A DNA stretch of 64,000 nucleotides from an uncultured Planctomycetia bacterium (GTDB taxonomy: Bacteria; Planctomycetota; MHYJ01; WSZJ01; CAZWCX01). Below are positions 13,458-43,990 of the stretch, piece after piece. Both the position numbers and the translations under genes were made by a program. The DNA lies in contig CAZWCX010000005.1 in the NCBI GenBank assembly GCA_964632945.1, positions 9,305 to 73,304 of the forward strand, in the 5' to 3' direction. The notes under the pieces are model-generated. The model worked only from the letters and a program-made list of their open reading frames with translations. It had not been told where the DNA came from and searched no databases. Positions within the stretch are counted from its first letter, which is position 1, and each line of letters opens with the position of its first letter.

Positions 13458-13474
13458 TCAGCTCTTGACCGGCG

Positions 13475-13966
13475 CTAGTGGGTGCTCTTCGCCGCGTCGA
13501 GCGTCGCCCAATTCGCGTCGCTCGCCTGCTTGCTCGCGTCGTTCGCGGCGGGCGCCGGGCCCTTCGTCGTGCGGGTCACCGCCTGCGCAGCCTGCTGGGC
13601 GAGCAACCGCGCCTGCACTCGGGATTGCGCGGACGCCTGTCCGGCCAGTCGGGCCGCCAGGCTCGCCTGCGTGCGACCGATCTCCTCGACGTTCAGCGTC
13701 GAACTTCCGAGATTCGCCGACACGTTCGCGGTGGCGTCCGCCGCCGTGCTGATGCCGCCGCTCGGCACCGGAACGGGCGCATCCACCGGCCCCGCCACCG
13801 CGGGAGCGATCATCATTGCCGAAGCGGCCATCTGCATCTGTTGGGGAGGATTCGGATCCGGGCACCCCGGGTCCACGCCCGGATTTCAGGTAGGCAGGGC
13901 GAGGGCGCCACAGGGGACGAAGGTCAGGAGCGCGAGCAGCGCGAGGGAACCAATCGCCGTCTTCAT
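13475..13966 (-). CDS. Secreted Pro/Ala-rich protein with an in-frame TGA at codon 27 (candidate UGA-recoded or selenoprotein, 163 aa)
   Basis: SD GGGAGGT, ATG 13966, signal peptide MKTAIGSLALLALLTFVPCGALA, then LPT, TGA (13886..13888), then NPGVDPGCPDP continuing in frame into ORF 13475..13876. Confidence 0.7.
13856..13885 (-). other. SECIS-like hairpin immediately 3' of the in-frame TGA
   Basis: A-ATCCGGGC-GTGGACCCGGGGT-GCCCGGAT, an 8-bp perfect stem. An alternative upper stem GGACC-CGG-GGT(G)CC starts 11 nt after the TGA. Folded by eye only. Confidence 0.45.
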
Positions 13967-14033
13967 GGGGAATTTACCTCCCGATGCGGGTAGCTTGGGC
14001 CACAGGTTTGCCGCCTCCTCCCGTCCCATTCTC

Positions 14034-14057
14034 ATGAATGATACAATCGCCATTCAT
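14034..14057. promoter_or_regulatory. Operator-like inverted repeat
   Basis: ATGAATG-N10-CATTCAT overlapping the -10/+1 region of the promoter for the 13966 gene. Confidence 0.45.
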
Positions 14058-14083
14058 TATACCCCGGTCGCCGGGAAACTCAA
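14056..14083 (-). promoter_or_regulatory. sigma70-type promoter for the 13966 gene and beta-barrel gene
   Basis: Minus strand TTGAGT-N16-TATAAT in an AT-rich intergenic stretch. Confidence 0.6.
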
Positions 14084-14154
14084 GGCCAAAGTCCGAATCG
14101 CGCATAATACGAATCAATGGATTGCAACCTAATCTCGCAAAGCGACTTGTGGTT

Positions 14155-17100
14155 CTACTTCGCCATCCTTTCCAGGAACTTCTTCCAGCGCGGGTCCCCG
14201 TGCAACGGGGCGAGGTCGGTGTCTTTTTCGGTCTGATCCCGGGTTCGCGCGCTGGGGACGATTTTGCCCGAAGGATCCAGTTCCTTTCCCCAGTTCAATT
14301 CCGCCGCCTTCTCGAGTTCCTCGAAGGCCAGGTCCTGGTAGGCCTTTTTCTGGTCCGCGACGACGGCCGGCCGGGTCTGGGATCCGGCCTTGCCGGCGCT
14401 GGCCTGGGCGTAGACGCAGGCCAGGTTGTAGTGGGAAATCGCGATGCGGGATCCGTTCTCCCGCAGGATCTTCTCCACCTCTTCCGGCGTGCACAGCTTG
14501 AAGTATCCGTACAGTTTGTGGAACGCCTGCTCGAAGGCCTTTTCGGCCTCCAAGTACTTCTGGTTGAGGGTCAGGTCGTTGGCGGCGTCGAGGTCCCTGG
14601 TCAGGGTGGCGCGCTGGAGTCCGGCTTCCAGGCCTTCCATGAGCTTGTCGAGTTCGGGGTTCTCGTGGGGGACGACCGAGCGGTAGCGCCGGAACGCGTG
14701 CAGGGCCTTTTCGGCGCCGCCCATGGCGACGTAGAGCATGCCGAGGCTGTGCCAGGCGTCCTTCACGCCGCGATCGATGGCCTGCTGATAGTGTTCCTGG
14801 GCGCGCGCGTAGTACGAGGAGCGCAGGTCCTGGGGGATGTCGAACCAGAAGGCGAGGGTGCCTTCCGCATTGGCGAGCAGCTTGTAGAGTTCCGCGTCCT
14901 CGGGGAAGTCGGCGAGCGCGGCCTCGCAGTCGGCGCGCATGAGGTCGGCGTACTTGAACTTCTCCGCTTCCTTGCCGGCCTGCGAGTATTGTCCGCTCAT
15001 GCCGGCGAGGCAGCGGATGCGCATGCGGCGGGCGTCCTTGTCGGCGGGGCTGCGGTCGAGCGCGCGCGAGAGGTCGGCGAATCCCTTTTCGAAGGCGGGG
15101 GTGGAATCTTCCTTCTGATCGGCGAGGGCCTGGCCGAGGTCGTGCCAGGCGATGCCGCGGGCGCGGGTGAGGGCGGTGTCGTCCGCCTGCCGTGTCAAGA
15201 GCGTGTCGTACAGCGCGATGGCGCTCCGGTAGGATTCGCGCGCGTCCTTGCCGAGGGCACGCTGCGATTCCGCGACGCGGGACAGGAGGCCGGCGCGGCG
15301 GTCGAGGAGGTCGGCGTCGGCCGCCTGGGGATCGGCCTTGGCGAGTGCCGTGAGCGTTTCCTGCAGCGCCGGAAGCGCGGCCTCCACGCGACCCGCGGCC
15401 AGGTGGAGGTCGGCGAGATCGCTCCAGGAGCGGGCGCGGAAGAGCTCGACCGCTGGGGTCGAGGCGACGTCCTTCCAGGCGGCGAGGGTTTCCTCGAGCA
15501 GGGGGAGGGCGCGATCCGCCGGCGAGCGTCCGGTCTCGAAGAGGAGGCGCGCGGTCCAGCCGCGGACGATGGCGGTTCCCGGGAAGGCGGAGTCCCGCGC
15601 GACCAGGGCATCCAGTTCATCCCGGGTGCGCTGGAAGACGCGGTCGGCCCCTTCGGCGGCGGGTTCGGTGGTCAGGGCGCGTGCGAGGGCGGCGATGAAC
15701 CGGTCGCGGGGGACCGACGGGAGTGCGGAGTGGCGCTTGTGCAGTTCGGCGAGGGCGACGAGGGCTTCCTGGGGACGGCCGTCGTCGAGGGCGAGCCGCG
15801 CGAGCGCCCACCATCCCTCATCCGCGGACTCGACCGCCGCGACGGCCTTCTCGAGGGCCGCGCCGGCCGTGCCGTCGGCCCCGTCGCGGAGCGTCCCCGC
15901 GAGGGCGCGGGACAGTTCCAGGAGCGCGGGTTCCTCCGGCCACGCCTGGATCTTCGCCAGGTCCTCGGCGGCCTGGAGGCGCAGGGCGGTCAGCCCGGCG
16001 TCCGCCTTTTCCCATGCCGCGGAACCGGTCCAAGCCGCGAGCGGACCCGGCGGGTCCTCGAGGAGCCGTTCGGCCGTGACTGCGGCCAGCCGGGCCGCGG
16101 ACAGGCGCTCGGCGTACTCGTCCAGGCGCACGCGCGCGCGTTCGAGCCGGGCGGCGGGGAAGTCGGGATGGGCGGTGAGCAGGGCGTCGAGCGCTGCGAT
16201 CGCCGGGTCGCGTTGACCGGCCCACCGGAACGCCGACGCTTCCAGCACCCGGGCCTCGCGTAGATCCTCGATCTCGAGGGTGCCGCGGACGTGTTCGGTG
16301 ACCCGTTGCAGGCCGGTCGGGAGCGATCGCGCGTCCCCCTGACGCGAGGCCACGACCAGTTGGTTGAAGGCGGCTTGCGCGTCCGCCAGCCGTGCCAGGG
16401 CGCGGTTGCGGCGGTCTTCCGCCTCTTTTTTTCCGGTGAGCGCGGCCTCGAGATACGAGGCGCGCTGTTTGGCCCACTCGGTCTGCATGACGAAGTAGCC
16501 GGCCACCCCGAGCGCGGCCACGACGGCGGCGCCCAGCAGAATCGGGGTGCGCTTGCGCTTCACGAAGCGCTTGATCTTGTAGTCGATCGACGGCGCGTGG
16601 GCGAGGATGTGTTCGCCCTTCATGATGCGCCAGAGGTCTTCCGCCATCTCGCCGGCGGTGGGGTAGCGGCGGTCGGGGTCCTTTTCGAGCGCCTTCATGC
16701 ACAGGATGTCGAGCTGGCGGTCGAGGGTCGGCACGACCGCGCTGGGCTGGCGCGGATCCTCGTTGAGGACGCGCTGGATCAGCTGGATCGTTTCACCCCC
16801 TTCGAGCGGCGGTCGCCCGGTGAGCAATTCGTACAACATCGCCCCGAGGGCGTAGATGTCGCTGCGCGGGCCGACCTTGGACTGGTCGCCGGCCGCCTGC
16901 TCGGGCGCCATGTAGAGCACCGTGCCCAGCGTGGCGCCGGACTTGGTGAGGCGCTGTTCCGATTCGGTGAGGTCCTTGGCGAGCCCGAAGTCGGTGATGA
17001 CCGGCTTCTTCGTCTCGAGGTCGATGAGGATGTTCGCCGGCTTGATGTCGCGGTGGACGATCCCCTGGGAATGGGCGTAGTCCATCGCCCGGCAGATCTC

Positions 17101-18582
17101 GTTGGCGAGCTTGATCGCGACCGCGACCTCGAGCCCGCCCGGGCGGCCGTCGCGCGTGCGCGCGCCCTTGGGGAAGAGGTCGTCCTTGGGGGCGCGCACG
17201 ACCTTGTCGAGCGACTTTCCCTCGACGTAGTCCATGACGAGGTAGGGCGTATCGCCGTACATGCCGATGTCGTACACCGCGACGATGCCGGGGTGGCGCA
17301 GCTTCGCCGACGCCCGTCCTTCGCGCCAGAAGCGCGCCTGCAGGAGGTCGGGGTCGCCGCTGGCGGCCGTGAGGACCTTGATGGCGACATAGCGGTTGAG
17401 CTTGGGGTCGTACGCCTTGTAGACCGCGCCCATTCCCCCCTGGCCGAGCTTCTGGACCAGGTAGTAGTCGGCGAAGCGTTGCCCGGTGGCCTTGATCTGC
17501 TCGATCTGGCGAACGTCCAGGCCGGCGCGCGAGGCGATGGTGGTGACGCCGGCGCGGGAGCGGTCGACGCTGCTGTCCGCCTTCGAGGTCGCGGCGGGAG
17601 AGACCTTGGACACGGCCAGCTGGCTGTCTCCCTTCCGGCTGTCCCCCTTGGGAGAATGGCGGGTCTGGTCGACCGCGGAGCGCGGACCGCCCGCGACCGA
17701 GGGGGCGGCTGCGGCGGCGCCGGGGGGATCCATGACCGTGGGCTCATGGGGGGCGAGCCCCGCGGAGTCCGACTTCTCGGGGACCTTGGGCAGATTGGGC
17801 TGGAAGCCCGAGGGGCGGCGACCCGGCGGGATCGGGGGTGCGGGGGTCCGGGCGACCGGCATCTCCGGCATGGTCATGGCCGCCTGGAAGTTCGGGTCCT
17901 GCGGCGAGGGGTCGGCGGCGGAGGAATCTCCGTGCGGGATCCCGGGGGCCGACGCCGGGGGCGGGGCCCCGGGCATGCCCGGGAAGAGCGGCGCCCGGCG
18001 CGGCGGCGTTCCGCTCGCCGGCATCTCGGCCATCGTCATGGCCGCCTGGAAGTTCGGGTCCTGCGGCGAGGGGTCGGCGGTGGAGGAATCGCCGTGCGGA
18101 ATCCCGGGGGCCGAAGCCGGGGGCGGATCCATGGGCAATCCCGGGAAGAGCGGCGCGCGGCGCGGCGGCGTGCCCGTCGACGGCGCGTCGGCCATCGTCA
18201 TCGCCGCCTGGAAGTCGGGGTCGCCCGGGTCCCCGGCGCGCGCCGGATCCGGCGCGCCCGTCCCGCCGAGCGGACTCGCGTCCGACATCGTCATCGCATC
18301 CTGGAACCCCGGGTCGCTCATCCCCACCGCGAAGTCCGCGCCGGGATCGTCCCCCGCGCGCGGGCCGGGCGTGGGGCCCGAGGGCGCGAAGGAACGGGGC
18401 TTCACATCCGCTTCTTCGACCGTGCGCCCGGACGGCTCGCCTTCCTTCTCCGGGGAAGGCCCGCCGAACAGGACGTCGGGTACCGTCTCATCGGGCCGGC
18501 GTTCTCCCTTACCCGGCGGCGTCGGCGGACGCGTGCCGGCCTTCTCGTCCTTCTTCGGGTTCGTTTCGGATGGTTCCACCAT
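14155..18582 (-). CDS. Ser/Thr protein kinase with long Pro-rich repetitive N-terminus, TM segment and TPR C-terminus
   Basis: GQGGMG, VAIK, HRDIKPANIL, DFG and GTVLYMAPEQ motifs; TM ILLGAAVVAALGVAGYFVM; TPRs. Confidence 0.93.
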   Translation of the reverse strand: MVEPSETNPKKDEKAGTRPPTPPGKGERRPDETVPDVLFGGPSPEKEGEPSGRTVEEADVKPRSFAPSGPTPGPRAGDDPGADFAVGMSDPGFQDAMTMSDASPLGGTGAPDPARAGDPGDPDFQAAMTMADAPSTGTPPRRAPLFPGLPMDPPPASAPGIPHGDSSTADPSPQDPNFQAAMTMAEMPASGTPPRRAPLFPGMPGAPPPASAPGIPHGDSSAADPSPQDPNFQAAMTMPEMPVARTPAPPIPPGRRPSGFQPNLPKVPEKSDSAGLAPHEPTVMDPPGAAAAAPSVAGGPRSAVDQTRHSPKGDSRKGDSQLAVSKVSPAATSKADSSVDRSRAGVTTIASRAGLDVRQIEQIKATGQRFADYYLVQKLGQGGMGAVYKAYDPKLNRYVAIKVLTAASGDPDLLQARFWREGRASAKLRHPGIVAVYDIGMYGDTPYLVMDYVEGKSLDKVVRAPKDDLFPKGARTRDGRPGGLEVAVAIKLANEICRAMDYAHSQGIVHRDIKPANILIDLETKKPVITDFGLAKDLTESEQRLTKSGATLGTVLYMAPEQAAGDQSKVGPRSDIYALGAMLYELLTGRPPLEGGETIQLIQRVLNEDPRQPSAVVPTLDRQLDILCMKALEKDPDRRYPTAGEMAEDLWRIMKGEHILAHAPSIDYKIKRFVKRKRTPILLGAAVVAALGVAGYFVMQTEWAKQRASYLEAALTGKKEAEDRRNRALARLADAQAAFNQLVVASRQGDARSLPTGLQRVTEHVRGTLEIEDLREARVLEASAFRWAGQRDPAIAALDALLTAHPDFPAARLERARVRLDEYAERLSAARLAAVTAERLLEDPPGPLAAWTGSAAWEKADAGLTALRLQAAEDLAKIQAWPEEPALLELSRALAGTLRDGADGTAGAALEKAVAAVESADEGWWALARLALDDGRPQEALVALAELHKRHSALPSVPRDRFIAALARALTTEPAAEGADRVFQRTRDELDALVARDSAFPGTAIVRGWTARLLFETGRSPADRALPLLEETLAAWKDVASTPAVELFRARSWSDLADLHLAAGRVEAALPALQETLTALAKADPQAADADLLDRRAGLLSRVAESQRALGKDARESYRSAIALYDTLLTRQADDTALTRARGIAWHDLGQALADQKEDSTPAFEKGFADLSRALDRSPADKDARRMRIRCLAGMSGQYSQAGKEAEKFKYADLMRADCEAALADFPEDAELYKLLANAEGTLAFWFDIPQDLRSSYYARAQEHYQQAIDRGVKDAWHSLGMLYVAMGGAEKALHAFRRYRSVVPHENPELDKLMEGLEAGLQRATLTRDLDAANDLTLNQKYLEAEKAFEQAFHKLYGYFKLCTPEEVEKILRENGSRIAISHYNLACVYAQASAGKAGSQTRPAVVADQKKAYQDLAFEELEKAAELNWGKELDPSGKIVPSARTRDQTEKDTDLAPLHGDPRWKKFLERMAK
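17869..18315 (-). repeat. 162-nt (54-aa) tandem repeat inside the kinase N-terminus
   Basis: The motif CGCCTGGAAG recurs at 17881, 18043 and 18205 (period 162). DPxFQAAMTM occurs three times at that period, plus a degenerate DPGFQDAMTM copy near 18315. Confidence 0.85.
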
Positions 18583-18603
18583 GGTCTTTCCCCTCTCCGC
18601 GAC

Positions 18604-19356
18604 TCAGTCTTTTCTGCCGCTCCAGTCCACGAGGCGACCGGTTTCCATCTCGACCCCGTCCAGGACTCGGCGCGCCTCGACCCACCAGGGATGGCCCGCC
18701 TTCCATACCTGCGTGGAGACGAGGGGTTTTCCGTTGATCTGGGTCTTGATCTCGACCACGGCGGTCCGCCCGCCATCCGCGTACTTCGTCGTCTGGATGA
18801 ACTCCCGCGTGCCCGTGCCGATCGTGTCGGCCACCGTCTCGTCCGTCCCTTCCCGCGGCAATCGGGGCAGGTCGAGCGGAATCAGCAGCCCGGTGTCGGA
18901 GTGGACGTAGGTCTTGGACGGATTGTCGATGACCGAGGAGGTTTCGCCGTCGTCCGTCTGCTCCATCCGCTTCAGCGTGAGGTTCGAGGAGCGAACGATC
19001 AGCGTGACGCGCTCGGTGTCGAACTGATCGTTCGTCATCTCCAGGACGAAACACCGGTTCCCGTCCAGGGTCTTCATCTCGACCACCTGGAACGTGCAGG
19101 TGACCGTCGTCTTCCGGTCCTTCTCGAGTGTCGGCGGTTTGTTCGGCTGCTTCGGATTGACCCCGGCCATCGGATGGCATTCGATCTTCCACCAGTCCCC
19201 GACGGTCCAGGCGGGGGCGACGGTCATCGGGACCTCGTCTTTGGTCCCCGGCGGAGGCTCATCGCCGGGATCCTCGTCCTGGGCGTGCGACAGGGAGGCG
19301 GCCAGAAAGGCGAGCAACCACGCGAACACGAGTCTGCGCAGACAGAAGACGCGCAT
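18604..19356 (-). CDS. Secreted hypothetical protein (beta-rich)
   Basis: C-terminal part of ORF 18604..20001. Signal peptide MRVFCLRRLVFAWLLAFLAASLSHA, then APAWTVGDWWKI...TFQVVEMKTLDG. Confidence 0.75.
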   Translation of the reverse strand: MRVFCLRRLVFAWLLAFLAASLSHAQDEDPGDEPPPGTKDEVPMTVAPAWTVGDWWKIECHPMAGVNPKQPNKPPTLEKDRKTTVTCTFQVVEMKTLDGNRCFVLEMTNDQFDTERVTLIVRSSNLTLKRMEQTDDGETSSVIDNPSKTYVHSDTGLLIPLDLPRLPREGTDETVADTIGTGTREFIQTTKYADGGRTAVVEIKTQINGKPLVSTQVWKAGHPWWVEARRVLDGVEMETGRLVDWSGRKD

Positions 19357-19510
19357 GACGGCCACTCCGGCAACAGGGTGCGGGACCCCTTCATCATAGG
19401 GGCAGGGGAGGTGGCGGGCAACCCTTTCAGCCGGGCGCGGTTTTCGTTGCGGCCGCCGTCCCCCGGCTGGCACAGTGTCGCGATCGGGGGACACGAGAAC
19501 GGGAGAGGCC

Positions 19511-20413
19511 ATGACCAAGCGGCGGGCGCGGATTGCGGCCCCGGATCCCACCGGAGAGTGGGTGGTGCGCAATGGCCGCTTGCGGACCCACGCCGAGGCC
19601 GCGGTGCGGATCAGCCACCCCGGTTTTCGGATCGGTCTGGGGCTGTTCGAGACGCTCCTGGCGGTCGACGGCCGCGTCGTCGCGGCGGCGGAGCATGTCG
19701 AGCGCATGCGCGCGTCCGCGCGCTGGCTGGGACTCCGCGGGACCCCCGCCGCGCCGGCCGTGCGCCGGGGCGTGGCCGAACTGCACGCGGCATGGCGGTC
19801 CGCCGGCGCCTCGCGCGCCGCACTCCGCTTCCTCCTGGTCCGTCTCTCGCTTTCGCCCGCCTCGATCGATGCCCGCACCGCCGACTGGACCTTGACCGCG
19901 GAGCCGATCGACGCCGCGGCACGCGCGCGCCTGCGCCGCGGCGTCGCCTGCGGGCTGTCCTCCTGGCGGCAGCCGTCCACCCACCCGCTCGTCGCGCACA
20001 AGACCCTCGCCTATCTGGACCGCTGGCTCACCACGCGCGACGCGCGTCGTGAAGGGCACTTCGACGACATCCGGCTCGACGACGAGGGGTGCGTGGCCGA
20101 GGGGAGCCTGTCGTCCGTCTTCGTCGTTGCCGACGGCGTGCTGCGCGCCCCGCCGACCGCGGGCGGAATCCTCCCCGGCGTCACCGCCACGGCCGTCCTG
20201 CGCCTCGCGCGCCGGGCGCGCCTGCGGGTCCGAATCGAACCGATCCCCGCCGGCGACCTCCTCGACGCCGAAGAGATCTTTCTCACCAACTCGACCAAGG
20301 GGGTCGTGCCGGTTCTTCGCCTGGACGGCCGTCGGGTGGGGAAGGGGCGTCCCGGACCGGTCACGCGACGGTTGCAGGGGATGCTCGAACGCGCGCTCAC
20401 GGGCGGCGCGTGA
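19511..20413 (+). CDS. Aminotransferase class IV (ADC lyase / branched-chain aminotransferase family)
   Basis: GLGLFETL, HVERM, HKTL (PLP lysine), VAEGSLSSVF, ILPGVT and EEIFLTNS motifs. Confidence 0.88.
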   Translation: MTKRRARIAAPDPTGEWVVRNGRLRTHAEAAVRISHPGFRIGLGLFETLLAVDGRVVAAAEHVERMRASARWLGLRGTPAAPAVRRGVAELHAAWRSAGASRAALRFLLVRLSLSPASIDARTADWTLTAEPIDAAARARLRRGVACGLSSWRQPSTHPLVAHKTLAYLDRWLTTRDARREGHFDDIRLDDEGCVAEGSLSSVFVVADGVLRAPPTAGGILPGVTATAVLRLARRARLRVRIEPIPAGDLLDAEEIFLTNSTKGVVPVLRLDGRRVGKGRPGPVTRRLQGMLERALTGGA

Positions 20414-20492
20414 GCTTCGGCCGCTTCGCGCGGCGCGGGCCGACGACCCGCGGCCGACCGCGCACCCGACGGCGTCCGGGACCGCCCGGCCC

Positions 20493-22877: not shown

Positions 22878-22954
22878 GGGAGCCTCCCGCGGCGGCGATT
22901 CGGGTGCGCAGGATCAGCCTGTGGTGTAGCACGCGCCGCAGGTGCTGGCAAGAA

Positions 22955-30282: not shown

Positions 30283-30442
30283 TCCACGAACCGCTTCGCG
30301 GTTCGCGAACCATCCGGCCTCGGCCGGCCAAGCAGGCCGTCCGGAGCGGGACTGCCTCGACCAGCATGCGACACCGCGTCGCGCACGCCGGTCGCCCCGC
30401 GATCCGGGCTGCTGACGCAGCCAGGCGGCCGCGGGCGGATTC

Positions 30443-30472
30443 TTCACGAAGCCGCCGACGCGGCTTCATGAA
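30443..30472. terminator. Hairpin between convergent ppx and desaturase genes
   Basis: TTCAC-GAAGCCGC-CGAC-GCGGCTTC-ATGAA. Confidence 0.5.
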
Positions 30473-30495
30473 TCATCCGGGCCGGCGACCCGTGC

Positions 30496-31500
30496 CTACG
30501 CCGTTTCGCCGCCCGACCCCACCCCGGTTTCCACCGGACCGGCGCCTGCGTGCGCCATCTCCTCCAGCACCTTCGCCGGGATCGGCCGCAGGTCCGAGAC
30601 CAGACCCGCCCAGGACATCGCCCGCAGCACCCAATAGGTGGGGTCGAACTCGTACCAGGCGAATCCCTGGTGCACCGTCGACTGGCAGTAGTGGTGGTTG
30701 TTGTGCCAGCCTTCCCCCATCGTGATCAGCGCCACCAGCCAGTTGTTGCGGCTCTCGTCCGTCGTGACGAATCGCTTCGTCCCGAAGAGGTGGGTCAGCG
30801 AGTTGACCGTGAACGTCCCGTGCGCGAGCACCACGGTGGAAATGAAAAAGCCCCAGATCAACATCTGCCACGCTCCCGTCCCCAGCGCGGGAGCCCAGAT
30901 CTCGAGCCCCCAGCCGAAGAAGAACAGCCCGACGGCGAGCGCCACCGGCACCAGCAGGTCGAACCGGTTCAGAAAGCGCAGTTCCGGATACCGCAGGAGG
31001 TCCGGCACCGACCGGTAGTCCGGTTGGAAATTGGCCAGCGACAGGAACCAGAGCGTGTGGCTCCACCAGAAGCCGTGCCGGATCGGGGAGTGCGCGTCCA
31101 CCTCCTCGTCCGAATGGAGGTGATGGTGCCGGTGGTGCGCCGCCCACCAGATCGGACCCCGCTGCGTCGCAGAGCAGCCGACCAGGGCGAAGGCGAACTG
31201 ACACGCGCGCGAGGTCCGGAACGTCTTGTGCGAGAAGTAGCGATGGTAGAAGCCGGTGATCGCGAACATTCGCACCCAGTAGAGCGCGATCGCGACCCCG
31301 ACCGCCGTCCAGCTCCAGCCGACCCAGATCACGGCAAGGCAGGCGACGTGCATCAGGAAGTACGGGATCGCCCGGAGGTAATCGATCCGGTCCGGTTCGT
31401 CCGGGTTGAACACGTGGCCGCCCAGCGAGGTATCGAACCAGCGGGCGATCGAGCGGATCGTGCGCGCGAAGACCGAACCGGAGGGGGTGGTGGAGGTCAC
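30496..31500 (-). CDS. Acyl-CoA (delta-9-type) fatty acid desaturase
   Basis: Three His boxes: HRYFSH, HHRHHH and WHNNHH. TM segments. GTG start after GGGAG. Confidence 0.93.
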   Translation of the reverse strand: MTSTTPSGSVFARTIRSIARWFDTSLGGHVFNPDEPDRIDYLRAIPYFLMHVACLAVIWVGWSWTAVGVAIALYWVRMFAITGFYHRYFSHKTFRTSRACQFAFALVGCSATQRGPIWWAAHHRHHHLHSDEEVDAHSPIRHGFWWSHTLWFLSLANFQPDYRSVPDLLRYPELRFLNRFDLLVPVALAVGLFFFGWGLEIWAPALGTGAWQMLIWGFFISTVVLAHGTFTVNSLTHLFGTKRFVTTDESRNNWLVALITMGEGWHNNHHYCQSTVHQGFAWYEFDPTYWVLRAMSWAGLVSDLRPIPAKVLEEMAHAGAGPVETGVGSGGETA

Positions 31501-31585
31501 GGCGAGACTCCCAGCAACGGAGGCGAATTTGAAGTAAGGGCATCTTCTCTCCGTCCAGGGGGACGCTCAATACGTATCTCCATGA

Positions 31586-31622
31586 GTCACAAACAAATTG
31601 GCAATGTCACAGGATTGTTACA
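31586..31622. promoter_or_regulatory. OmpR/PhoB-like direct repeats in the divergent desaturase/flgM intergenic region
   Basis: GTCACA (31586), TGTCAC-N5-TGTTAC with 11-bp period (31605, 31616). Confidence 0.35.
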
Positions 31623-31666
31623 TTGGCGTGTGGGTGCCGAAAATGGCAGGTTGCGAATGCTCTGGC

Positions 31667-31694
31667 TCAAGATTTCGTGCCGGATGGCCGATAC
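31667..31694 (+). promoter_or_regulatory. sigma28 (FliA)-type promoter upstream of flgM
   Basis: TCAAGATT-N12-GCCGATAC versus consensus TAAAGTTT-N11/12-GCCGATAA. Confidence 0.6.
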
Positions 31695-31776
31695 AGTAAA
31701 GTACATGGGGAAATTGGTTTGAGGGCGCGCCTGACTGTGAGGGCGGTCAGGGCGTCCGCTAGGAGAGGGTTGGTGC

Positions 31777-32058
31777 ATGGAAATCGTGCGTTCTGATGGT
31801 CCGTCCGGACCGGGGCGCGTCGAGGGACCGCGCCTGGGGTCGGTGAACCCCGCTGCCTCCGTCCCGCTGTCCGCCCGGGGCGACCGGGTGGAAATCTCCG
31901 AAGCCGCGCGCCTTTCTTCCGCCGTCGCGCGCGTTCCCGACGTGCGCACCGAGAAGATCCGCAACCTTCGCGACGTGATCGCCCGGGGCGATTACGAGTC
32001 CGAAGAGAAGTTCCGCATTGCCGTCGAGCGGTTCCTCGACGAACTCGACGGCGCGTAG
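31777..32058 (+). CDS. flgM: Anti-sigma28 factor FlgM
   Basis: 93 aa with DRVEISEAAR...PDVRTEKIRNLRDVIARGDY, the FlgM pattern. sigma28-like promoter upstream. Confidence 0.8.
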   Translation: MEIVRSDGPSGPGRVEGPRLGSVNPAASVPLSARGDRVEISEAARLSSAVARVPDVRTEKIRNLRDVIARGDYESEEKFRIAVERFLDELDGA

Positions 32059-32059
32059 G

Positions 32060-32827
32060 GTGGGACGCATCCTCTGTGCGCGCTGCCTGGGCTCCTTCGA
32101 CGAGGAGCTCATGGCGCGCGAGGGCCGGGAGGTCCTCTGCGCCGATTGCCGACAGCGCGCCCGCGCCGCTCCCCCCCCGGCGCCCGCGCGCTCCCCGGCC
32201 GGGTCCGAGGCGACGCCGGCCGGGACTGCGGACCCGGAGTCTGCGCAGCCGCCCGATTCCCCGTGGGTTGCGGCCTTGCGCCACGAGATCGAGTCGTGGT
32301 GCGCCGGCCGCAATCTCTGGGTGCGCCTCCCGCTCCTGATCTGGTTCCTCCTTATCCTCGCCCGCCACTGGGCGAACCCGGAGTACCAGAGCCTCTTCAA
32401 GCCGCTCAACCTGGGCATCCACGAACTCGGTCACTACCTGTTCGCCGCCTTCGGCAACTTCATGGCCGTTGCCGGCGGGTCGCTCGCCCAATGCCTCGCC
32501 CCCCTCGCCTCGATGATCATGTTCTGGCGGCAGCCGGACTATTTCGCCATCGCCGTGTGCTTCGGCTGGCTGGGCACCAACTGCTTCGACGTGGCCGTGT
32601 ATGCCGGGGATGCCCGCAGCATGGCTCTTCCCCTGGTCACCCCCGGCGGCGGGGAACCGATCCACGACTGGAATTGGCTGCTGGCCCGGATGGGCATGCT
32701 GGAGTGGGATCGCACGATCGAGATCCTCCTGCGCCTCCTCGGGTCCGCCTCCCTGCTTGCCGGAACGGCCGCGGGCGGCTGGATGCTGTGGGTCATGTAC
32801 CGGAATCCGACCCCCCGCCCGCACTGA
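32060..32827 (+). CDS. Membrane protein with N-terminal Zn finger and HExxH motif (M50B-like)
   Basis: GTG 1 nt after the flgM stop. CARC...CADC; NLGIHELGHYLF; HDWNWLL; several TM segments. Confidence 0.75.
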   Translation: MGRILCARCLGSFDEELMAREGREVLCADCRQRARAAPPPAPARSPAGSEATPAGTADPESAQPPDSPWVAALRHEIESWCAGRNLWVRLPLLIWFLLILARHWANPEYQSLFKPLNLGIHELGHYLFAAFGNFMAVAGGSLAQCLAPLASMIMFWRQPDYFAIAVCFGWLGTNCFDVAVYAGDARSMALPLVTPGGGEPIHDWNWLLARMGMLEWDRTIEILLRLLGSASLLAGTAAGGWMLWVMYRNPTPRPH

Positions 32828-32857
32828 CCGGCCGCGCCCGGTTGCCTCCGCCGTCGT

Positions 32858-32886
32858 TTGACACGGTGCGTCGCCGCGAGTACACT
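32858..32886 (+). promoter_or_regulatory. sigma70 promoter for the SRPBCC-ettA operon
   Basis: TTGACA-N17-TACACT. Confidence 0.75.
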
Positions 32887-32912
32887 CCCTGGCTCGAATT
32901 CCGGAGGTCACC

Positions 32913-33422
32913 ATGAATCTCGACGACGCCACGCGCAGCCGCCTGGAGCGCGGCGACGTGATCACCTCCCTGACCGACGTGAACGGACACAAGCGCGCGC
33001 AGGCGCTCGCGCTCATCTCCGCGCCCGTCGACGCCGTCTGGGAGGCGATCACCGACTACGACGAGTACAAGAACTTCATGCCCCACACCAAGGAGAGCAA
33101 GGTGCTCTCGCGCAAGAAAAACGAAGTGCTGTTCCACACCGAGCTCGAATTCCCGATCAAGGAAATCTGGTACGACATCCTCCTCACTCTCGATAAAAAA
33201 AACCACCACGTGGACTGGGTGATGAAGGAGGGGAGCATCCGTTCCAACGAGGGGTCGTGGGACCTGAAGAAGTATGACGGGGACCGGAAGCGGACCTTCG
33301 CGACCTACACCCTCGCGACCGATCCGGGCTTTTTCGTTCCGAAGTTCCTGCTCGAGAAGGCGACCCAGGGGTCGCTTCCGCTGATCATCCAGTCCGTCCG
33401 CAAGCGGGTCGAAAAGGGGTAA
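32913..33422 (+). CDS. SRPBCC/START (polyketide cyclase/COQ10-like) protein
   Basis: ISAPVDAVWEAITDYDEYKNFMPH...NEGSWDL...YTLATDPG. SD GGAGG. Confidence 0.85.
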   Translation: MNLDDATRSRLERGDVITSLTDVNGHKRAQALALISAPVDAVWEAITDYDEYKNFMPHTKESKVLSRKKNEVLFHTELEFPIKEIWYDILLTLDKKNHHVDWVMKEGSIRSNEGSWDLKKYDGDRKRTFATYTLATDPGFFVPKFLLEKATQGSLPLIIQSVRKRVEKG

Positions 33423-33427
33423 GCGTC

Positions 33428-35104
33428 ATGGCCCAGCAATTCATCATGGTCATCAAGGGCTTGCGCAAGTACTACGAGCGCAAGGAGGTCATCCGGGACA
33501 TCTCCCTCTCGTTCTACCCCGGCGCCAAGATCGGCATCCTGGGCGGAAACGGGGCCGGAAAGTCGACCCTGCTCCGGGTCATGGCCGGCGTGGAGAAGGA
33601 CATCGAGGGGGAAGTCTGGCACGCCCCCGGCACCACGATCGGGTATGTCCCGCAGGAACCGCTCCTCGACACGGACAAGGACGTGCGCGGCGTCGTCGAG
33701 GAGGCGGTGGAGCCGGTGCGTCGATTGCTGCAGGAACACGAGGAGATCGGCGCCCGCCTCGGGGAACCGCTCGAACCGGAGGAGATGGAAAAGGCCCTGG
33801 CGCGCCTGGAGACGGTTCAGGCCCAGATTGAGGCCTGCGGCGGGTGGGAGCTCGACCGGCAGCTGGAAATCGCGTCGGACGCGCTGCGTCTGCCCCCCTG
33901 GGACGCCAAGGTGAAGGTCCTCTCCGGCGGGGAGCGGCGGCGGGTGGCGCTCTGTCGCGTGCTCATGCAGCGTCCGGATCTCCTGCTCCTCGACGAACCG
34001 ACCAACCACCTCGATGCCGACACCGTGGCCTGGCTCGAACACCATCTCCAGGAGTATGCCGGATCGGTCATCGCGGTCACGCACGATCGTTACTTCCTGG
34101 ACAACGTCGCCGGCTGGATCCTCGAACTCGATCGCGGCCACGGCATCCCGTGGAAGGGGAATTATTCGAGTTGGCTGGAGCAGAAGAAACAGCGGCTGGA
34201 GCTCGAGGAAAAGGCGGAGACGGCGCGTCAGCGCACCCTGATGCGGGAGCTGGAGTGGGTCCGCATGTCCCCCCGGGCTCGCGTGGCCAAGAGCAAGGCC
34301 CGCCTGAAGGCGTACAACGAACTCGCCGCCCAGGAATTCGAGGAGCGGTCGGAGTCGGTCGTCCTTCAGCTGCCCCCGGGTCCGCAGCTCGGCAATCAGG
34401 TGGTCGAGACCCGCAGCCTGCGCAAGGGGTACGGGGACCGGGTGCTGATCGAGGACCTGACCTTCTCCCTCCCGCCCGGTGGAATCGTCGGGGTGATCGG
34501 CCCGAATGGCGCCGGCAAGACCACGCTCTTCCGCATGATCGTCGGCGAAGAGAAACCCGACTCCGGCGAGCTCGTGGTGGGAAACAGTGTCGTCCTGGCC
34601 TACGTGGACCAGAATCGCGAGACCCTGAACCCCGATCAGAGCGTCTTCCAGGAGGTCTCCGACGGGAAGGAGACCATCAAATTCGGCAAACGGGAGATCA
34701 ACTCCCGGGCCTACCTGGCGCGCTTCAATTTCAAGGGGTCGGACCAACAGAAGAAGGTGGGGGAGCTCTCCGGCGGGGAGCGAAATCGGATCCAGCTCGC
34801 CAAGTTGCTCCGTCGGGGGGGAAATGTCATCCTGCTCGACGAACCGACCAACGACTTGGATGTAGATACGCTTCGCGTCCTGGAGGAGGCCCTGCTGAAC
34901 TTCGCCGGGTGTGCGGTGATCATCAGCCACGACCGGTGGTTCCTGGACCGGATCGCGACCCACATCCTGTCCTTCGAGGGTGAGGGAAGGGTCCGCTGGT
35001 GGGAAGGCAACTACCAGTCCTATCACGAGATGCGCCGTGGCGAACTCGGGGACGCCGCCGATCGGCCGAGTCGCCTGAAGTACAAGAAGTTGATGAAAAC
35101 CTAG
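33428..35104 (+). CDS. ettA: Energy-dependent translational throttle protein EttA (ABC-F)
   Basis: ISLSFYPGAKIG, GGNGAGKST, LSGGERRRVAL, ELEWVRMSPRARVAKSKARL, second ABC domain GPNGAGKTT. Confidence 0.96.
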   Translation: MAQQFIMVIKGLRKYYERKEVIRDISLSFYPGAKIGILGGNGAGKSTLLRVMAGVEKDIEGEVWHAPGTTIGYVPQEPLLDTDKDVRGVVEEAVEPVRRLLQEHEEIGARLGEPLEPEEMEKALARLETVQAQIEACGGWELDRQLEIASDALRLPPWDAKVKVLSGGERRRVALCRVLMQRPDLLLLDEPTNHLDADTVAWLEHHLQEYAGSVIAVTHDRYFLDNVAGWILELDRGHGIPWKGNYSSWLEQKKQRLELEEKAETARQRTLMRELEWVRMSPRARVAKSKARLKAYNELAAQEFEERSESVVLQLPPGPQLGNQVVETRSLRKGYGDRVLIEDLTFSLPPGGIVGVIGPNGAGKTTLFRMIVGEEKPDSGELVVGNSVVLAYVDQNRETLNPDQSVFQEVSDGKETIKFGKREINSRAYLARFNFKGSDQQKKVGELSGGERNRIQLAKLLRRGGNVILLDEPTNDLDVDTLRVLEEALLNFAGCAVIISHDRWFLDRIATHILSFEGEGRVRWWEGNYQSYHEMRRGELGDAADRPSRLKYKKLMKT

Positions 35105-35268
35105 ATTACGTAACCGGTTGTGGAGTCTCCCATGGAACCAACCCGCCCCGGTTCGGTGGCGGCCCGCAGGCAGGGAATCGGGCCGACCGGGACACGGGGA
35201 TCGCGTGACGCCGCCCGCGCGAGGGGGGCTCCCAGGAACGCGCCCAAAGATTCCGAATTGGTAATAGT

Positions 35269-35286
35269 CGTTACTGCGGCGCAACA
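35269..35286 (+). promoter_or_regulatory. Candidate enhancer (UAS) for a sigma54 activator, copy 1
   Basis: CGT-N12-ACA (CGTTACTGCGGCGCAACA), 110 bp upstream of the -24 GG. Matches the site at 36467. Confidence 0.55.
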
Positions 35287-35377
35287 GATAGCCGGGATCG
35301 ATTTTGGGTGGAAATTGGTACGTTTCATTAAGTGCTTATAGATTAATGATTTATTAATTTCACGCTTCAATCGTCTT

Positions 35378-35395
35378 GGGTATGTCGATTGCTAA
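35378..35395 (+). promoter_or_regulatory. sigma54 -24/-12 promoter, copy 1
   Basis: GGGTATG-TCGA-TTGCTAA with GG-N10-GC spacing; AT-rich tract upstream. Confidence 0.65.
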
Positions 35396-35498
35396 CACCC
35401 CTCCCATCGGATTGACAACGAGACGACGAACGATACGGAGACAGAGAGAGTGAATCCCCGCAAGGGGGTCGAGTTGGTTGCGTTGTTGGAGTAGGAAT

Positions 35499-35768
35499 AT
35501 GAAGCACCTGTTCACACTGGCCGCAGTGCTGGTGCTGGTCGGGACGCTCTTCGTGGGCGTGCCTGCCAGCGTGTTCGGGTGACCCCCGCCTGGGGCCCCG
35601 CCTCCCCCGGACATTACGCCTGGCCCGGGTCCGGTTCCGGATCCGCCGGGGGGAGATGATGATGGTGGTGGTGACGACGATGACGGTGGTGGCGACGACG
35701 ACGACGGCGGCCCGGAGACGCAGGTTGATGACGGGCCCGACGCTGGCGAAGAGCGCTATCTGATGTAA
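35499..35768 (+). CDS. Small secreted Pro/Gly/Asp-rich peptide with an in-frame TGA at codon 28, copy 1 (89 aa if read through)
   Basis: SD GGAGTAGGA, MKHLFTLAAVLVLVGTLFVGVPASVFG, TGA (35580..35582), then PPPGAPPPPDITPGPGPVPDPPGGDDDGGGDDDDGGGDDDDGGPETQVDDGPDAGEERYLM-TAA. Missed by the ORF track. Confidence 0.7.
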
Positions 35769-35790
35769 TCGTTCCTCACTTCAGAACATC

Positions 35791-35832
35791 CTCGAGGGCT
35801 CGCGACACCCGTCGCGGGCCTTCGAGTGTTTT
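35791..35832 (+). terminator. Intrinsic terminator after copy 1
   Basis: 16-bp stem CTCGAGGGCTCGCGAC-ACCC-GTCGCGGGCCTTCGAG followed by TGTTTT. Confidence 0.7.
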
Positions 35833-36466
35833 CGGGGTCTTTACAGCCTCTGCACTTGCACGTCCTCGACGGCCGCCCGTCAACCCGCGCGTTGCGGGAG
35901 CTACTGCCGGGCCGGAATCGTGCCGGGCGTCCCCGACGCCGCTCACACCGGAGGCCATGGATCCTGGCTCGCCCCCCGGCTCATCTCGGCTTGGCTGGGA
36001 TCTTTGTAGGGAAGGCTCCGGGAGCAGGCGCGGCGACACAAATGCGGCTCCCGTTGGCCCGGCGTCAGGCCGGCCCGGGTCCAGGCGCACGGAGACCCGC
36101 ACCCGCGCGCGAGCGGGGGGCGGTCGCGGCCGTTCGTGGTGCTCGCCCCTCGGCTCAGGACCCGCGCGCGATCGGGACGCGGTGGCGAGGCGGTCCATGC
36201 CCCGGGCGTGGGCCAAGGACTCCGTCCGAATCGAGCGACCGTCGGCCGCCTTGCCACTTCGATGGATCTTCTTAAAGTGGGCGTTCATGTAGTAGCGTGA
36301 ATGCGAGAAGTGCGGGGCGTGCGCACCCAGGTCCGGGGTGTTCCCCTGCGGTCGAGTTTCCGCCCCGACGCGATCCAGTACCCACCGCCCGTGCCCGAGA
36401 CCCGTCCGATCTCGGTCGGGCCCTCGCCTGAATCGCTACCCTGAGGAAACAGTCATTGGAGTTCCC

Positions 36467-36484
36467 TGTTACCCGTGCGGAACA
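36467..36484 (+). promoter_or_regulatory. Candidate enhancer (UAS) for a sigma54 activator, copy 2
   Basis: TGT-N12-ACA (TGTTACCCGTGCGGAACA), 112 bp upstream of the -24 GG. Confidence 0.55.
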
Positions 36485-36577
36485 AATCGAAAGTCGTGAT
36501 CCAGCGCTGAATTCCAAGTATGGTTTTAAAGCGTTTTATAATAACATGTTGAGAAACAAATAAGAATTCTAGTCCTG

Positions 36578-36595
36578 CGGTACGGTCGTTGCTAA
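36578..36595 (+). promoter_or_regulatory. sigma54 -24/-12 promoter, copy 2
   Basis: CGGTACG-GTCG-TTGCTAA versus consensus TGGCACG-N4-TTGCW; AT-rich tract upstream. Confidence 0.7.
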
Positions 36596-36688
36596 ATGCA
36601 CCCTCGTCCAACACGAACGACGCCGAACGAAACCAACGAAGTAGTGACGGGGCCGCGAGGCCCTGAAGGACCTGTGAAGGAGAGAAGC

Positions 36689-36958
36689 ATGAAGCACCTG
36701 TTCACACTGGCCGCAGTGCTGGTGCTGGTCGGGACGCTCTTCGTGGGCGTGCCTGCCAGCGTGTTCGGGTGACCCCCGCCTGGGGCCCCGCCTCCCCCGG
36801 ACATTACGCCTGGCCCGGGTCCGGTTCCGGATCCGCCGGGGGGAGATGATGATGGTGGTGGTGACGACGATGACGGTGGTGGCGACGACGACGACGGCGG
36901 CCCGGAGACGCAGGTTGATGACGGGCCCGACGCTGGCGAAGAGCGCTATCTGATGTAA
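36689..36958 (+). CDS. Small secreted Pro/Gly/Asp-rich peptide with an in-frame TGA at codon 28, copy 2
   Basis: Identical by eye to 35499..35768. SD AAGGAG. TGA at 36770..36772. Confidence 0.7.
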
Positions 36959-36985
36959 TCTCCTCAACACAGTGGAACGTTCCAG

Positions 36986-37020
36986 AGGGGGCTTGCGATT
37001 GCGATCGCAAGCCCCCTTGT
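36986..37020 (+). terminator. Terminator-like hairpin after copy 2
   Basis: 14-bp stem AGGGGGCTTGCGAT-TGCG-ATCGCAAGCCCCCT followed by TGT. Confidence 0.65.
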
Positions 37021-37130
37021 CCATTTCTCCTCAATCTCGCCGAATCCACGAACTTTCCGCTCGCCCCGAGGGTCTAAGGACCCGGCCATCCTTGATTCGG
37101 AAGTTCCGCAAGCTCCTTCCAGGGATTGGC

Positions 37131-37158
37131 TTGACGACTTCCCGCGACGGGCTATAAT
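37131..37158 (+). promoter_or_regulatory. sigma70 promoter for the 37200..50783 gene run
   Basis: TTGACG-N16-TATAAT. Confidence 0.75.
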
Positions 37159-37199
37159 TCATGAAGTAAAATCCTGCGCCCCCCCTCTAGGAGACGGGC

Positions 37200-39146
37200 A
37201 TGGAGTTGATCCTGAAGAAGGTCAGGGCCATCCAGCGGTGGCTCTTCCTCGTTCGCTTTGGCGAGAACTCGGTACGCCTTCTCTTCTATGCTCTGTGCAT
37301 CTTCTCGCTCCTGGTCCTGCTGGATCGCCTGATCTTCCTCAATGTCGATCTCTACCAGGGCATGGTGATCATGACCGGCACCGCTCTCCTCGGCGCGGCG
37401 GTCTGGGTAGCTCTGTCCCGGATCACCCTCCTGCGTGCCGCCATGGTCGCGGACGAGCAGCTCGGCCTGAAAGAGCGGCTTTCGAGCGCCTTGTCCGTCG
37501 GTCAAGCCGGCACTCCCATGGAGCAGGCCCTGATCCTCGATACCGCCCAGAAGGCGCAGAAGGTGGTCGTCACGCGCACCGCGTCGTTCCGGTTCCCGCG
37601 GGAGTCGCGGTTCTTCTACATCCCCGCGGCCCTCATCGTCCTCTCCCTCATGGTCCTCCCGCCGCTCGACCTCCTGGGTCGGCTCGAGGCCAAGACCATC
37701 AGCGAAGCCAAGAAGGAAGAGGCCAAGAAGGACTCGCTCAAGGTGGAGAAGCGCACCGAGAAGATCAAGAAGCGCCTGGAGGAAAAGAGTCTCCCCGAAC
37801 TCGAGGGCGTGATCAAGAAGCTGGAAGCCCTCTCGGAGGATCTGAAGGCACAGAAGACCGACAAGGTCGACGCAATGGCCAAGCTCTCGAACCTCTCCGA
37901 TGAATTGAAGGATCGTCGCGAGCAGCTCGGGGAGAAGATGGCGGTCAAGCGCGACCTGGAGTCTCTCTCCGGTGAAGAAGGCGAGATGGGCAAACTCGCC
38001 GAGGCCGTCAAGTCGGGGGATTGGGAAGAGGCCAGAGAGCAATTGAAAAACCTCGAGGAGAAGCTCAACAGCGACTCCCTCACGCCCGAGGAGAAGCAGA
38101 AACTCCAGCGGCAGCTTCAGCAACTCGCGAAGTCCCTCAAGAATGATCGCAATCTGGAGCGGCTCGGGAAGTCGCTCGAGAAGCTCGCCGAGCGCATGGA
38201 GAAGGTGCAGGACAAGCTGGGCGAGGAGGATCGCAACTACGCCAGCAAGGCATTCGAAGAACTCGATGAGCAGATGAAGACTCTCGAGGATCTGTCGGAA
38301 GAGGAACTGGAGGAGTTGGAGAAGACCCTCGACGAGCTGGAACAGGCCAAGGACGACCTGACCGAGGAAAACGGCGAGGAAGGCCAGCAGGGCCAAAATG
38401 GCCAGGACGGACAGCAGGGTCAGGAAGGCCAGGAAGGCCAAGAGGGACAGGAAGGTCAGGAAGGCCAGGAAGGCCAGAAGCAGGGCCAGCAGGGCCAGAA
38501 GCAGGGGCAGCAGGGTCAGAAGCAGGGGCAACAGGGTCAGAAAGGCCAACAAGGACAGAAGGGCCAGGAAGGCCAGAAGAAGGGCGGCGACCAGGAGTGC
38601 ATCAATTGCAAGAAGAAGATGAGCCAATCCGGCGGAACCTGAAGTAGCGGCCAGGGCAAGAAGCCCGGGACCTGAAAGGTCCTCGGGGCCTACGGGCTAG
38701 GCCGATCGAAAGCGAACCAGGGTCAAGGCGGCAAGGGCAGCCAGAGCGGCAAGGGTCTGGGATCCGGGGGTCCGGGAACGGGCAAGGGCGGCAAGGTGCC
38801 GGAGAGCGGCAATCGCAATGTCCGATTCGACAAGGAGAAGATCAAGGGGCTCCTGGACAGCAAGGGGGAGATCCTGGGCGGCATCTTCGTAAAGGGCCAG
38901 GCCACCAAGGGCGAGGCCAAGCAGGAGTACGTCGAGGCCTACAAGGCCGAGATTCAGGAATCCACCGACGCGCTCACCAAGGAAGACATTCCTCTCGGTT
39001 ACAAGCAATTCGTCTCGACCTACTTTGACTCGATCGATGGCGCCGGGGAGGATGACTCCGCGGCCGACGAGGGCGCTACACCTCCGTCCGGCGGTTCCCC
39101 CGGGGAGGGGACCAAGCCGACCGAGGGGCAAGGGGGCGGGAAGTAA
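37200..39146 (+). CDS. Membrane-anchored coiled-coil protein of the kind found with MoxR/vWA operons, with two in-frame TGAs (648 aa if read through)
   Basis: ORFs 37200..38642 and 38796..39146 share a frame, interrupted only by TGA 38640..38642 and 38673..38675. N-terminal TMs, coiled coil, GQ repeats, CINC-x10-TGA-x10-TGA, Gly-rich linker, C-terminal ALTKEDIPLGYKQFVSTYFDSI. Confidence 0.75.
38382..38579 (+). repeat. Gly-Gln low-complexity tandem repeats (9- and 21-nt units)
   Basis: GQQGQNGQDGQQGQEGQEGQEGQEGQEGQKQGQQGQKQGQQGQKQGQQGQK... Confidence 0.85.
38654..38666 (+). other. SECIS-like hairpin 11 nt after TGA 38640
   Basis: GGGC-AAGAA-GCCC, extendable by CC/GG past a bulged A. A second hairpin CCCG-GGACC-TGAAA-GGTCC-T-CGGG (38664..38687) holds the next TGA in its loop. 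Confidence 0.4.
38687..38703 (+). other. SECIS-like 17-nt hairpin exactly 11 nt after TGA 38673
   Basis: GGCCTA-CGGGC-TAGGCC, a perfect 6-bp stem with a G-containing loop. Uses codons CTA and CGA, which look rare in this GC-rich context. Confidence 0.6.
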
Positions 39147-43983: not shown

Positions 43984-43990
43984 GGCGTCG

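Follow-up and report, generated by a model that had tools for sequence, protein, structure and literature searches.

Bacterial genes that read UGA as selenocysteine (Sec), with Escherichia coli fdhF as the prototype, carry a hairpin just 3' of the codon, the selenocysteine insertion sequence (SECIS); for its bacterial form (bSECIS), the available model calls for an apical loop of 3-9 nt with G in the first two loop positions, a spacing of 16-37 nt and an energy of -7.5 kcal/mol or lower (PMC13188914). Table 1 of the same 2026 catalogue includes families with two Sec residues, namely FmdB-family UxxU (TIGR02605), a 'metal-binding protein' UxxU (NF041115) and MbdU (NF045648), and several Planctomycetes possess the full Sec machinery (PMC4807772). 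Here we analyze a 64-kb stretch of DNA from an uncultured Planctomycetia bacterium (64,000 nt of contig CAZWCX010000005.1, hereafter the window), in which five in-frame TGA codons interrupt four genes, termed g1 to g4. An earlier, sequence-only reading had proposed that UGA is recoded at specific sites in exported, non-enzymatic proteins outside the known families. Conservation of g4 and g2 now supports this proposal, with internal evidence only for g1, and we consider it likely that the codons specify selenocysteine through ordinary SelB/SECIS insertion.

Several features liken these genes to known SelB/SECIS genes: the UGA is conserved in orthologues and replaced by a cysteine codon in one homologue (g4, first site); a candidate stem-loop with the loop G that the model requires lies 17-31 nt past the UGA in g1 and at both sites of g4; and TGA is a stop elsewhere. 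They differ in that their products appear to be exported and are not recognizable enzymes, in that g2 and g3 have no hairpin that fits the model, and in that the two candidate SECIS elements of g4 overlap, with the second UGA inside the first apical loop. Like the two-Sec metal-binding and zinc-ribbon-like families, g4 would combine two Sec residues with cysteines in a short motif resembling a metal or redox site; unlike them, it spaces these residues as CxxC-x10-U-x10/11-U (U, the UGA-encoded residue), an arrangement that holds across lineages, within a putatively membrane-anchored coiled-coil protein of ~650 residues. NCBIfam models gave no match above noise to g1, g2, g4, the g4 motif region or a g4 orthologue (L008), with none at E <= 1 for g4 or its motif; no Pfam domain was found in g1, g2/g3 or g4; and among the 119 catalogued families no entry corresponds to g1, g2 or g4 (PMC13188914). 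We regard these genes as probable new selenoprotein families that use a known mechanism. What is probably new is the protein families and the position of the residue: g1 and g2/g3 place it immediately behind their signal peptides, and in g2/g3 it would be the first mature residue.

Conservation of the interrupted genes

All five TGAs occupy the positions originally noted, in frame between a start codon preceded by a Shine-Dalgarno (SD) sequence and a downstream stop (Table 1). SD-like motifs (GGAG, AGGAG or GGGAGG) stand ahead of the ATG in all four genes, sigma-70-like promoters precede g4 and g1, and the reported ACC-TGA-A context recurs at three of the codons, those of g1 and g4. The context of the g2/g3 codon is GGG-TGA-C.

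Homology indicates that g4 is one gene. Approximately 260 uninterrupted homologues of 550-700 residues, including several from named Planctomycetota or Phycisphaerae, span both of its halves at 90-98% coverage. When the C-terminal piece was searched against short proteins only, the matches were precisely the fragments into which gene callers break the gene in relatives; these are present in public databases as N-terminal pieces of 468-482 residues and C-terminal pieces of 115-153. Read from its sequence, the protein opens with three hydrophobic segments at the N-terminus, continues through a long coiled coil and a tract rich in Gln and Gly to a CINC-x10-U-x10-U motif (...CINCKKKMSQSGGT-U-SSGQGKKPGT-U-KVLGAYGLG...), and closes with a conserved two-helix domain (...EDIPLGYKQFVSTYFDSI).

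The codons of g4 could be followed through five lineages, made up of the window, the contigs of the split-fragment relatives and two Planctomycetota metagenome-assembled genome (MAG) contigs. TGA is present at both sites in the window, in L001/L005/L006/L007 (68-73% identity), and in the more distant MAG contigs L008 (the same as L011; 35-41%) and L010 (38%); in L003/L004 (72% identity over a partial sequence covering the C-terminal part only), site 1 reads TGC, a cysteine codon, whereas site 2 keeps the TGA. A scan for related loci with the g4 sequence alone gave no match, and the same scan with the g4 alignment returned one known contig and four genome loci. Across the lineages, the ten or eleven codons between the two TGAs are conserved at the protein level; there is no restart codon conserved among the five after the second TGA; and downstream of this TGA, substitutions relative to L006 fall 32/28/63 on the three codon positions, a third-position bias. 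Together, these three observations exclude both a pseudogene and a split of g4 into two proteins. The sequence-only reading had asked whether cysteine aligns with the TGAs in relatives: the TGC of L003/L004 does so at g4 site 1, and the searches with g1 and g2 turned up no Cys-containing form. On alignment, this lone TGC/TGA exchange reads as the classical Sec/Cys signature.

In more distant homologues with cysteines, this region carries CxxC-x8-10-CxxC, which in some of them is of the CxxCxGxG type known from DnaJ; these alignments are biased by the entry of U as C. Since cysteines occur at this place in close and distant homologues alike, the CxxC-x10-U-x10-U cluster of four ligands most probably serves in redox chemistry or in binding a soft metal. 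From the sequence and the positive-inside rule, we infer that the coiled coil and the Cys/Sec motif lie outside the cytoplasm.

g2 and g3 are twin copies of a much shorter gene. A 272-nt block at 36689-36960 matches 35499-35770 with 100% identity; it starts at the ATG and extends two bases beyond the TAA, and the flanks (promoters, leaders and terminators) have diverged around it; the bounds of the block indicate that the unit kept identical is the full readthrough open reading frame (ORF). This pattern suggests that the coding part alone underwent gene conversion or was duplicated very recently. Each copy encodes a signal peptide ending in ...VPASVFG, the TGA, a proline-rich segment (PPPGAPPPP...), GGDDD repeats and a terminal ...EERYLM (MKHLFTLAAVLVLVGTLFVGVPASVFG-U-PPPGAPPPPDITPGPGPVPDPPGGDDDGGG...EERYLM). 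An orthologue in L005/L001 retains the TGA, which in L005 follows ...VSVFG, and the L005 and window proteins both finish ...Y-x-M-stop. The L005 copy lies directly upstream of the g4 orthologue, such that the g2-g4 pair is syntenic. Downstream of the TGA, g2 and its L005 orthologue differ by 17 synonymous-only and 13 non-synonymous codon changes, distributed 4/9/28 over the three codon positions, and all indels comprise whole codons, indicating that the part of g2 past the TGA is translated and under selection. Relatives of both g4 and g2 therefore preserve the TGA codons together with the frame behind them (g1 has no orthologues), and comparison indicates that the downstream frames of both genes are under purifying selection. 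A pseudogene reading of g4 and g2 was rejected on these two grounds, conservation and downstream selection.

Transcription of g2/g3 is very high. An RNA contig of g2 (X6, 35499-35684) has a k-mer depth of 447 and one of g3 (X3, 36757-36974) a depth of 1418, both covering the TGA; g4 is represented in the same runs by contigs at 37191-37865 and 38326-39132, at a depth of ~4. We propose that the g2/g3 product is a small secreted or lipid-anchored peptide, acidic and proline-rich, whose first mature residue is encoded by UGA. The lipoprotein signal, or lipobox (PROSITE PS51257), has the form [LIVMFWSTAG](2)-[LIVMFYSTAGCQ]-[AGS]-C and tolerates no charge among the six residues ahead of it. By inspection, the ...S-V-F-G-U of g2/g3 would fit this pattern if U stands in for the invariant Cys, with a Pro-rich tether behind it; the A-L-P-T-U of g1 does not fit. 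Signal peptidase I might just as well cleave the precursor, which would expose a free Sec at the N-terminus. A literature search returned no lipoprotein with Sec at +1 and no Sec-containing lipobox. Readthrough of g2/g3 is, in our judgment, very probably real.

Other observations concern the surroundings of the two copies. AT-rich stretches (e.g. TTATAGATTAATGATTTATTAATTT), atypical for this genome, lie upstream of both copies in 35320-35498 and 36510-36688, and are followed by leaders of ~150 nt that have only patchy mutual similarity; g2/g3 may be driven from these elements as strong promoters or controlled by them as regulatory leaders. The stretch between g2 and g3 is apparently gene-free and of lower GC content, and contains a 28-nt direct repeat (36101-36187; 86% identical, 59 nt apart). 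One X1 contig fuses 35498 to 36689, either because the repeat collapsed or because the allele has a single copy.

In g1, a 26-residue signal peptide, MKTAIGSLALLALLTFVPCGALALPT, is followed by the TGA, NPGVDPGCPDPNPP... and an Ala/Gln-rich tail, and the gene shares with g2 the order of signal peptide, UGA and Pro-rich segment. Because no relatives of g1 were found, its case rests on internal evidence. The GC content at third codon positions (GC3) is 0.85-0.86 on either side of the TGA, as in coding sequence; RNA contigs at 13327-14059 and 13386-14006 cover both parts at a depth of 26-29, the end near 14059 agreeing with the predicted promoter; four differences between strains (13541, 13556, 13772 and 13775) all fall on third codon positions; and a strong SD precedes the upstream ATG, with none before the internal GTG or ATG. 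We consider readthrough of g1 fairly likely, and propose that the gene encodes an exported protein unrelated to g2/g3 but with the same layout.

The possibility that the codons are errors of sequencing or assembly, raised in the sequence-only reading, was checked on independent DNA and RNA contigs. The locus recurs in bioreactor, sludge and wastewater metagenomes, and DNA contigs from other studies and strains, with single-nucleotide polymorphisms nearby, have the TGAs intact: X5 (36122-36811, an independent strain) for g3, X10 for both g4 sites and X8 for g4 site 1. The g1 TGA is unaltered in DNA contigs of X1 and X2. Metatranscriptome contigs likewise leave the codons unchanged in g4 (X3 and X11), g3/g2 (X3 and X6) and g1 (X3 and X4); for g4, the TGA at 38640 is thus retained in X8, X10 and X11 and that at 38673 in X10 DNA and X3 RNA. 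Sequencing or assembly error is therefore ruled out: the codons are real and transcribed, and in g2 and g4 they are conserved in relatives.

Table 1. Window coordinates of the interrupted genes and their associated features.
Feature	Position	Strand	Description
g1	13966..13475	-	163 codons
g1 in-frame TGA	13888-13886	-	context ACC-TGA-A
g1 promoter-like TTGAGT-16-TATAAT	14056..14083	-	10/12 matches (shuffles mean 0.1)
g1 SECIS-like hairpin GGAC-CCGGG-GUG-CCCGG-AUCC	13854..13874	-	11 nt past TGA, -16.0 kcal/mol
g2	35499-35768	+	89 codons, TGA at 35580..35582
g3	36689-36958	+	second g2 copy, TGA at 36770..36772
g4 promoter TTGACG-16-TATAAT	37131-37158	+	11/12 matches
g4	37200-39146	+	648-residue protein, TGAs at codons 481 and 492
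g4 CxxC (C467, C470)	38598..38609	+	ahead of both TGAs; invariant in the five UGA-bearing lineages
g4 first in-frame TGA (codon 481)	38640..38642	+	context ACC-TGA-A
g4 second in-frame TGA (codon 492)	38673..38675	+	context ACC-TGA-A
g4 candidate SECIS 1	38649..38698	+	long hairpin after TGA1; core at -17.2 kcal/mol, with the apical loop 31 nt away from UGA1
g4 candidate SECIS 2, 17-nt GGCCUA-CGGGC-UAGGCC	38687..38703	+	exactly 11 nt past TGA2, -11.4 kcal/mol

TGA usage and candidate SECIS hairpins

The sequence-only reading had also pointed out that the interruptions are always TGA, never TAA or TAG. This stands as an observation but is weak as an argument, since TGA accounts for 1129 of the 1514 stop triplets in the window (75%; GC content 63-72%); its exclusive occurrence is what chance would predict and carries little weight alone. 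Long accidental ORFs are frequent in this GC-rich sequence, and together with the abundance of TGA they make comparison with relatives necessary. A six-frame scan for an SD, a start codon, a basic residue, a hydrophobic stretch, a TGA and at least 40 open codons identified only the three signal-peptide sites described above and two trivial cases, one with non-coding composition and one an ordinary gene junction; the pattern seen in g1 and g2/g3 is not due to chance. A strict GC3-based scan of the window for readthrough candidates flagged only ordinary same-frame neighbors.

TGA is also a genuine stop in this DNA, as had been claimed from a GTGA overlap at 61512 and from an ORF ending in ...LTYGF* at 11832. 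The 39 long ORFs with GC3 support terminate with TGA (~20, these two ends included), TAG (17) or TAA (2), and many of those ending in TGA contain Pfam domains. With TGA terminating about half of the well-supported genes, Pfam-complete ones among them, genetic codes 4 and 25 are excluded, as the sequence-only reading had held. The share of TAG at these gene ends contrasts with only 20% of the stop triplets in the DNA; a stronger dominance of TGA is expected at ~70% GC.

Inspection of the sequence 3' of the codons revealed hairpins that fit the bSECIS model in g1 and at both g4 sites, the model being only weakly specific in this sequence. The g1 hairpin has a GUG apical loop 20 nt from the UGA. 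In g4, candidate SECIS 2 overlaps the 3' arm of candidate SECIS 1; because the two share sequence, hairpin 2 would form only once a ribosome has unwound hairpin 1, and decoding of the two codons in the window gene would then be sequential. The SECIS 2 hairpin is identical in L001 and takes a 7-bp form with a GGC loop in L003, which has TGC at site 1, needs no SECIS there, and carries the stronger site-2 hairpin. After site 2, the hairpin of L008 and L010 is a different one, whose loop lies 23-24 nt from the UGA and contains GGU (it folds as GGU or as AGGUU under different models); their site-1 hairpin is of another sequence but in the same place, and one compensatory pair (G-C versus A-U) distinguishes it between the two. 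These hairpins are consistent with Sec without being proof of it. Within the 64-kb window we found no selA, selB, selC or selD and no tRNA-Sec; the only match of an Rfam scan was a tRNA-Gln, and no tRNA occurs in the related loci.

Proposed selenocysteine insertion and competing explanations

We favor an account in which the five TGAs are sense codons read site-specifically, with TGA terminating elsewhere. Since TGA still ends most genes, decoding must be local, and to our knowledge SelB acting with a SECIS hairpin is the only established bacterial route for local decoding of UGA. By this standard route, tRNA-Sec would be delivered by SelB at UGAs followed by a hairpin immediately 3' in the mRNA. 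We infer the identity of the residue as Sec, the dependence on SelB, the membrane topology and the functions of the proteins, and hold the first of these with a confidence that differs among the genes: Sec at both UGAs of g4 is probable, Sec as the residue inserted in g2/g3 is favored with some reserve, and for g1 the balance tips only slightly toward it.

A number of observations weigh against selenocysteine. The TGC of L003 is the sole clean Cys/Sec pair, and entering U as C in the alignments draws it toward Cys columns in distant homologues. The g4 motif lies within Gly-rich low-complexity sequence, and an AlphaFold model of the C-terminal 194 residues has a pLDDT (predicted local distance difference test) of 57, with a two-helix hairpin at ~75 and the motif lacking a confident fold. 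No hairpin fitting the bSECIS model follows the TGA in g2/g3. Of random TGAs in the window, 55% satisfy the model at the -7.5 kcal/mol limit and ~12% have energies as low as -16, and in this GC-rich DNA the fold energies are no better than those of shuffled sequence. Homologues were absent for g1 among 5.8 billion proteins and for g2 among 1.84 billion representative proteins, leaving no Cys form at the g2 site.

At g2/g3, and perhaps at g1, the codon might instead be passed by leaky, context-driven readthrough, with a near-cognate tRNA (Trp, Arg or Cys) acting without SelB, most ribosomes stopping and a fraction yielding the extended protein. Such leakage would account for the missing SECIS of g2/g3 and would suit their Gly-UGA-C context, UGA-C being the weakest termination signal in bacteria (UGA-A is leaky too), and at so high a transcript level readthrough of a few percent would still give product. 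We nevertheless judge it unlikely: the g2 relative has kept its TGA despite changed flanking codons, it is hard to see why two unrelated genes should hold on to a mostly wasteful stop right behind their signal peptides, the syntenic neighbor g4 has a Cys/TGA pair, and TGG occurs at no site in any relative. All of the site-specific evidence, the Cys codon of L003 at g4 site 1 included, would fit equally well with a SelB/SECIS-type mechanism that inserts cysteine from a Cys-charged tRNA-Sec-like tRNA. Such tRNAs, reportedly found in some bacteria by Mukai and colleagues, are rare, and we regard cysteine insertion as improbable.

That the TGAs are simply true stops, with g4 split or decaying, g1 and g2/g3 encoding short hydrophobic peptides, and the downstream frames arising by chance or from starts of their own, appears very improbable. 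The commonness of long accidental ORFs here, the in-frame GTG that lies 10 nt past the TGA of g1, the lack of g1 relatives, and the splitting of g4 by public gene callers would each agree with termination. In lineages as distant as 35% identity, however, g4 retains both TGAs and the ten codons between them without a shared restart codon, change past the TGAs of g2 and g4 is biased to third positions and indels comprise whole codons, the g2/g3 identity block spans the entire readthrough ORF, and in g1 the internal starts lack an SD and one transcript spans both parts. Genome-wide reassignment of TGA (code 4 or 25), like sequencing or assembly error, has only the interruptions themselves in its favor; with TGA ending about half of the supported genes and the codons recurring in independent studies, strains and RNA, we consider the chance of either to be negligible.

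If selenocysteine is indeed the residue, the ~119 selenoprotein families known in prokaryotes would be joined by as many as three more, none of these a classical redox enzyme and all apparently exported. Selenium would become tied to the poorly understood MoxR-VWA (Bat-type) membrane systems, for whose operons our literature search returned no published link with selenium, and among the most transcribed genes of a bioreactor organism would be one for a small peptide that starts with Sec. The overlapping hairpins of g4 would, once Sec is confirmed, offer a compact test case for how bacteria decode two closely spaced Sec codons. A broader reading, which we put forward as doubtful, joins g2/g3 and g4 in a conserved extracytoplasmic selenium module of Planctomycetota, in which an abundant, Sec-first exported peptide, with Sec in the place of the invariant lipobox cysteine, accompanies a membrane-anchored CxxC-U-U partner attached to MoxR-VWA/ATP-binding cassette (ABC) operons; the g2/g3 product would then either be a 'selenolipoprotein' or carry a free selenol at its N-terminus, and its UGA would be read in the absence of a canonical bSECIS. 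As the sequence-only reading had anticipated, standard gene callers mishandle all four genes, splitting g4, missing g2 and g3 entirely and truncating g1, leaving their proteins invisible to annotation.

Genes around the interrupted frames

Relative to operons of the Bat type (MoxR-DUF58-BatA/VWA), g4 lies just upstream and on the same strand. The genes that follow it encode an ABC importer (39153-42960; substrate-binding protein, 527-residue permease and ATPase), an NHL protein (ScyF-like), a 978-residue protein with a double VWA and GATase1-like region, a MoxR AAA+ protein (46995), a DUF58 protein and a BatA-N/VWA protein (48807), the run at 39153-50783 thus combining a Bat-type module with a transporter. 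Synteny between g4 and the substrate-binding protein gene recurs in L003 and L008.

On the other side of the window, the regions 3034-10096 and 14155-18582 contain three large genes encoding Ser/Thr protein kinases with TPR regions and genes for HEAT-repeat proteins, together with one for a protein that has an N-terminal methylation motif. Such a gene complement suits a genome of Planctomycetota-like (or Myxococcota-like) type and agrees with the closest g4 relatives, which are Planctomycetota MAGs. Ten proteins of the window that were looked up in the protein collection were all either singletons or missing from it. A same-frame TGA junction at 18606 (minus strand) was considered as a further recoding site and rejected, the downstream gene having its own SD and ATG; here, a 465-residue ORF ends in TGA in frame with the next gene, which encodes a 1475-residue Ser/Thr kinase, with seven codons between them (18604-18582, minus strand).

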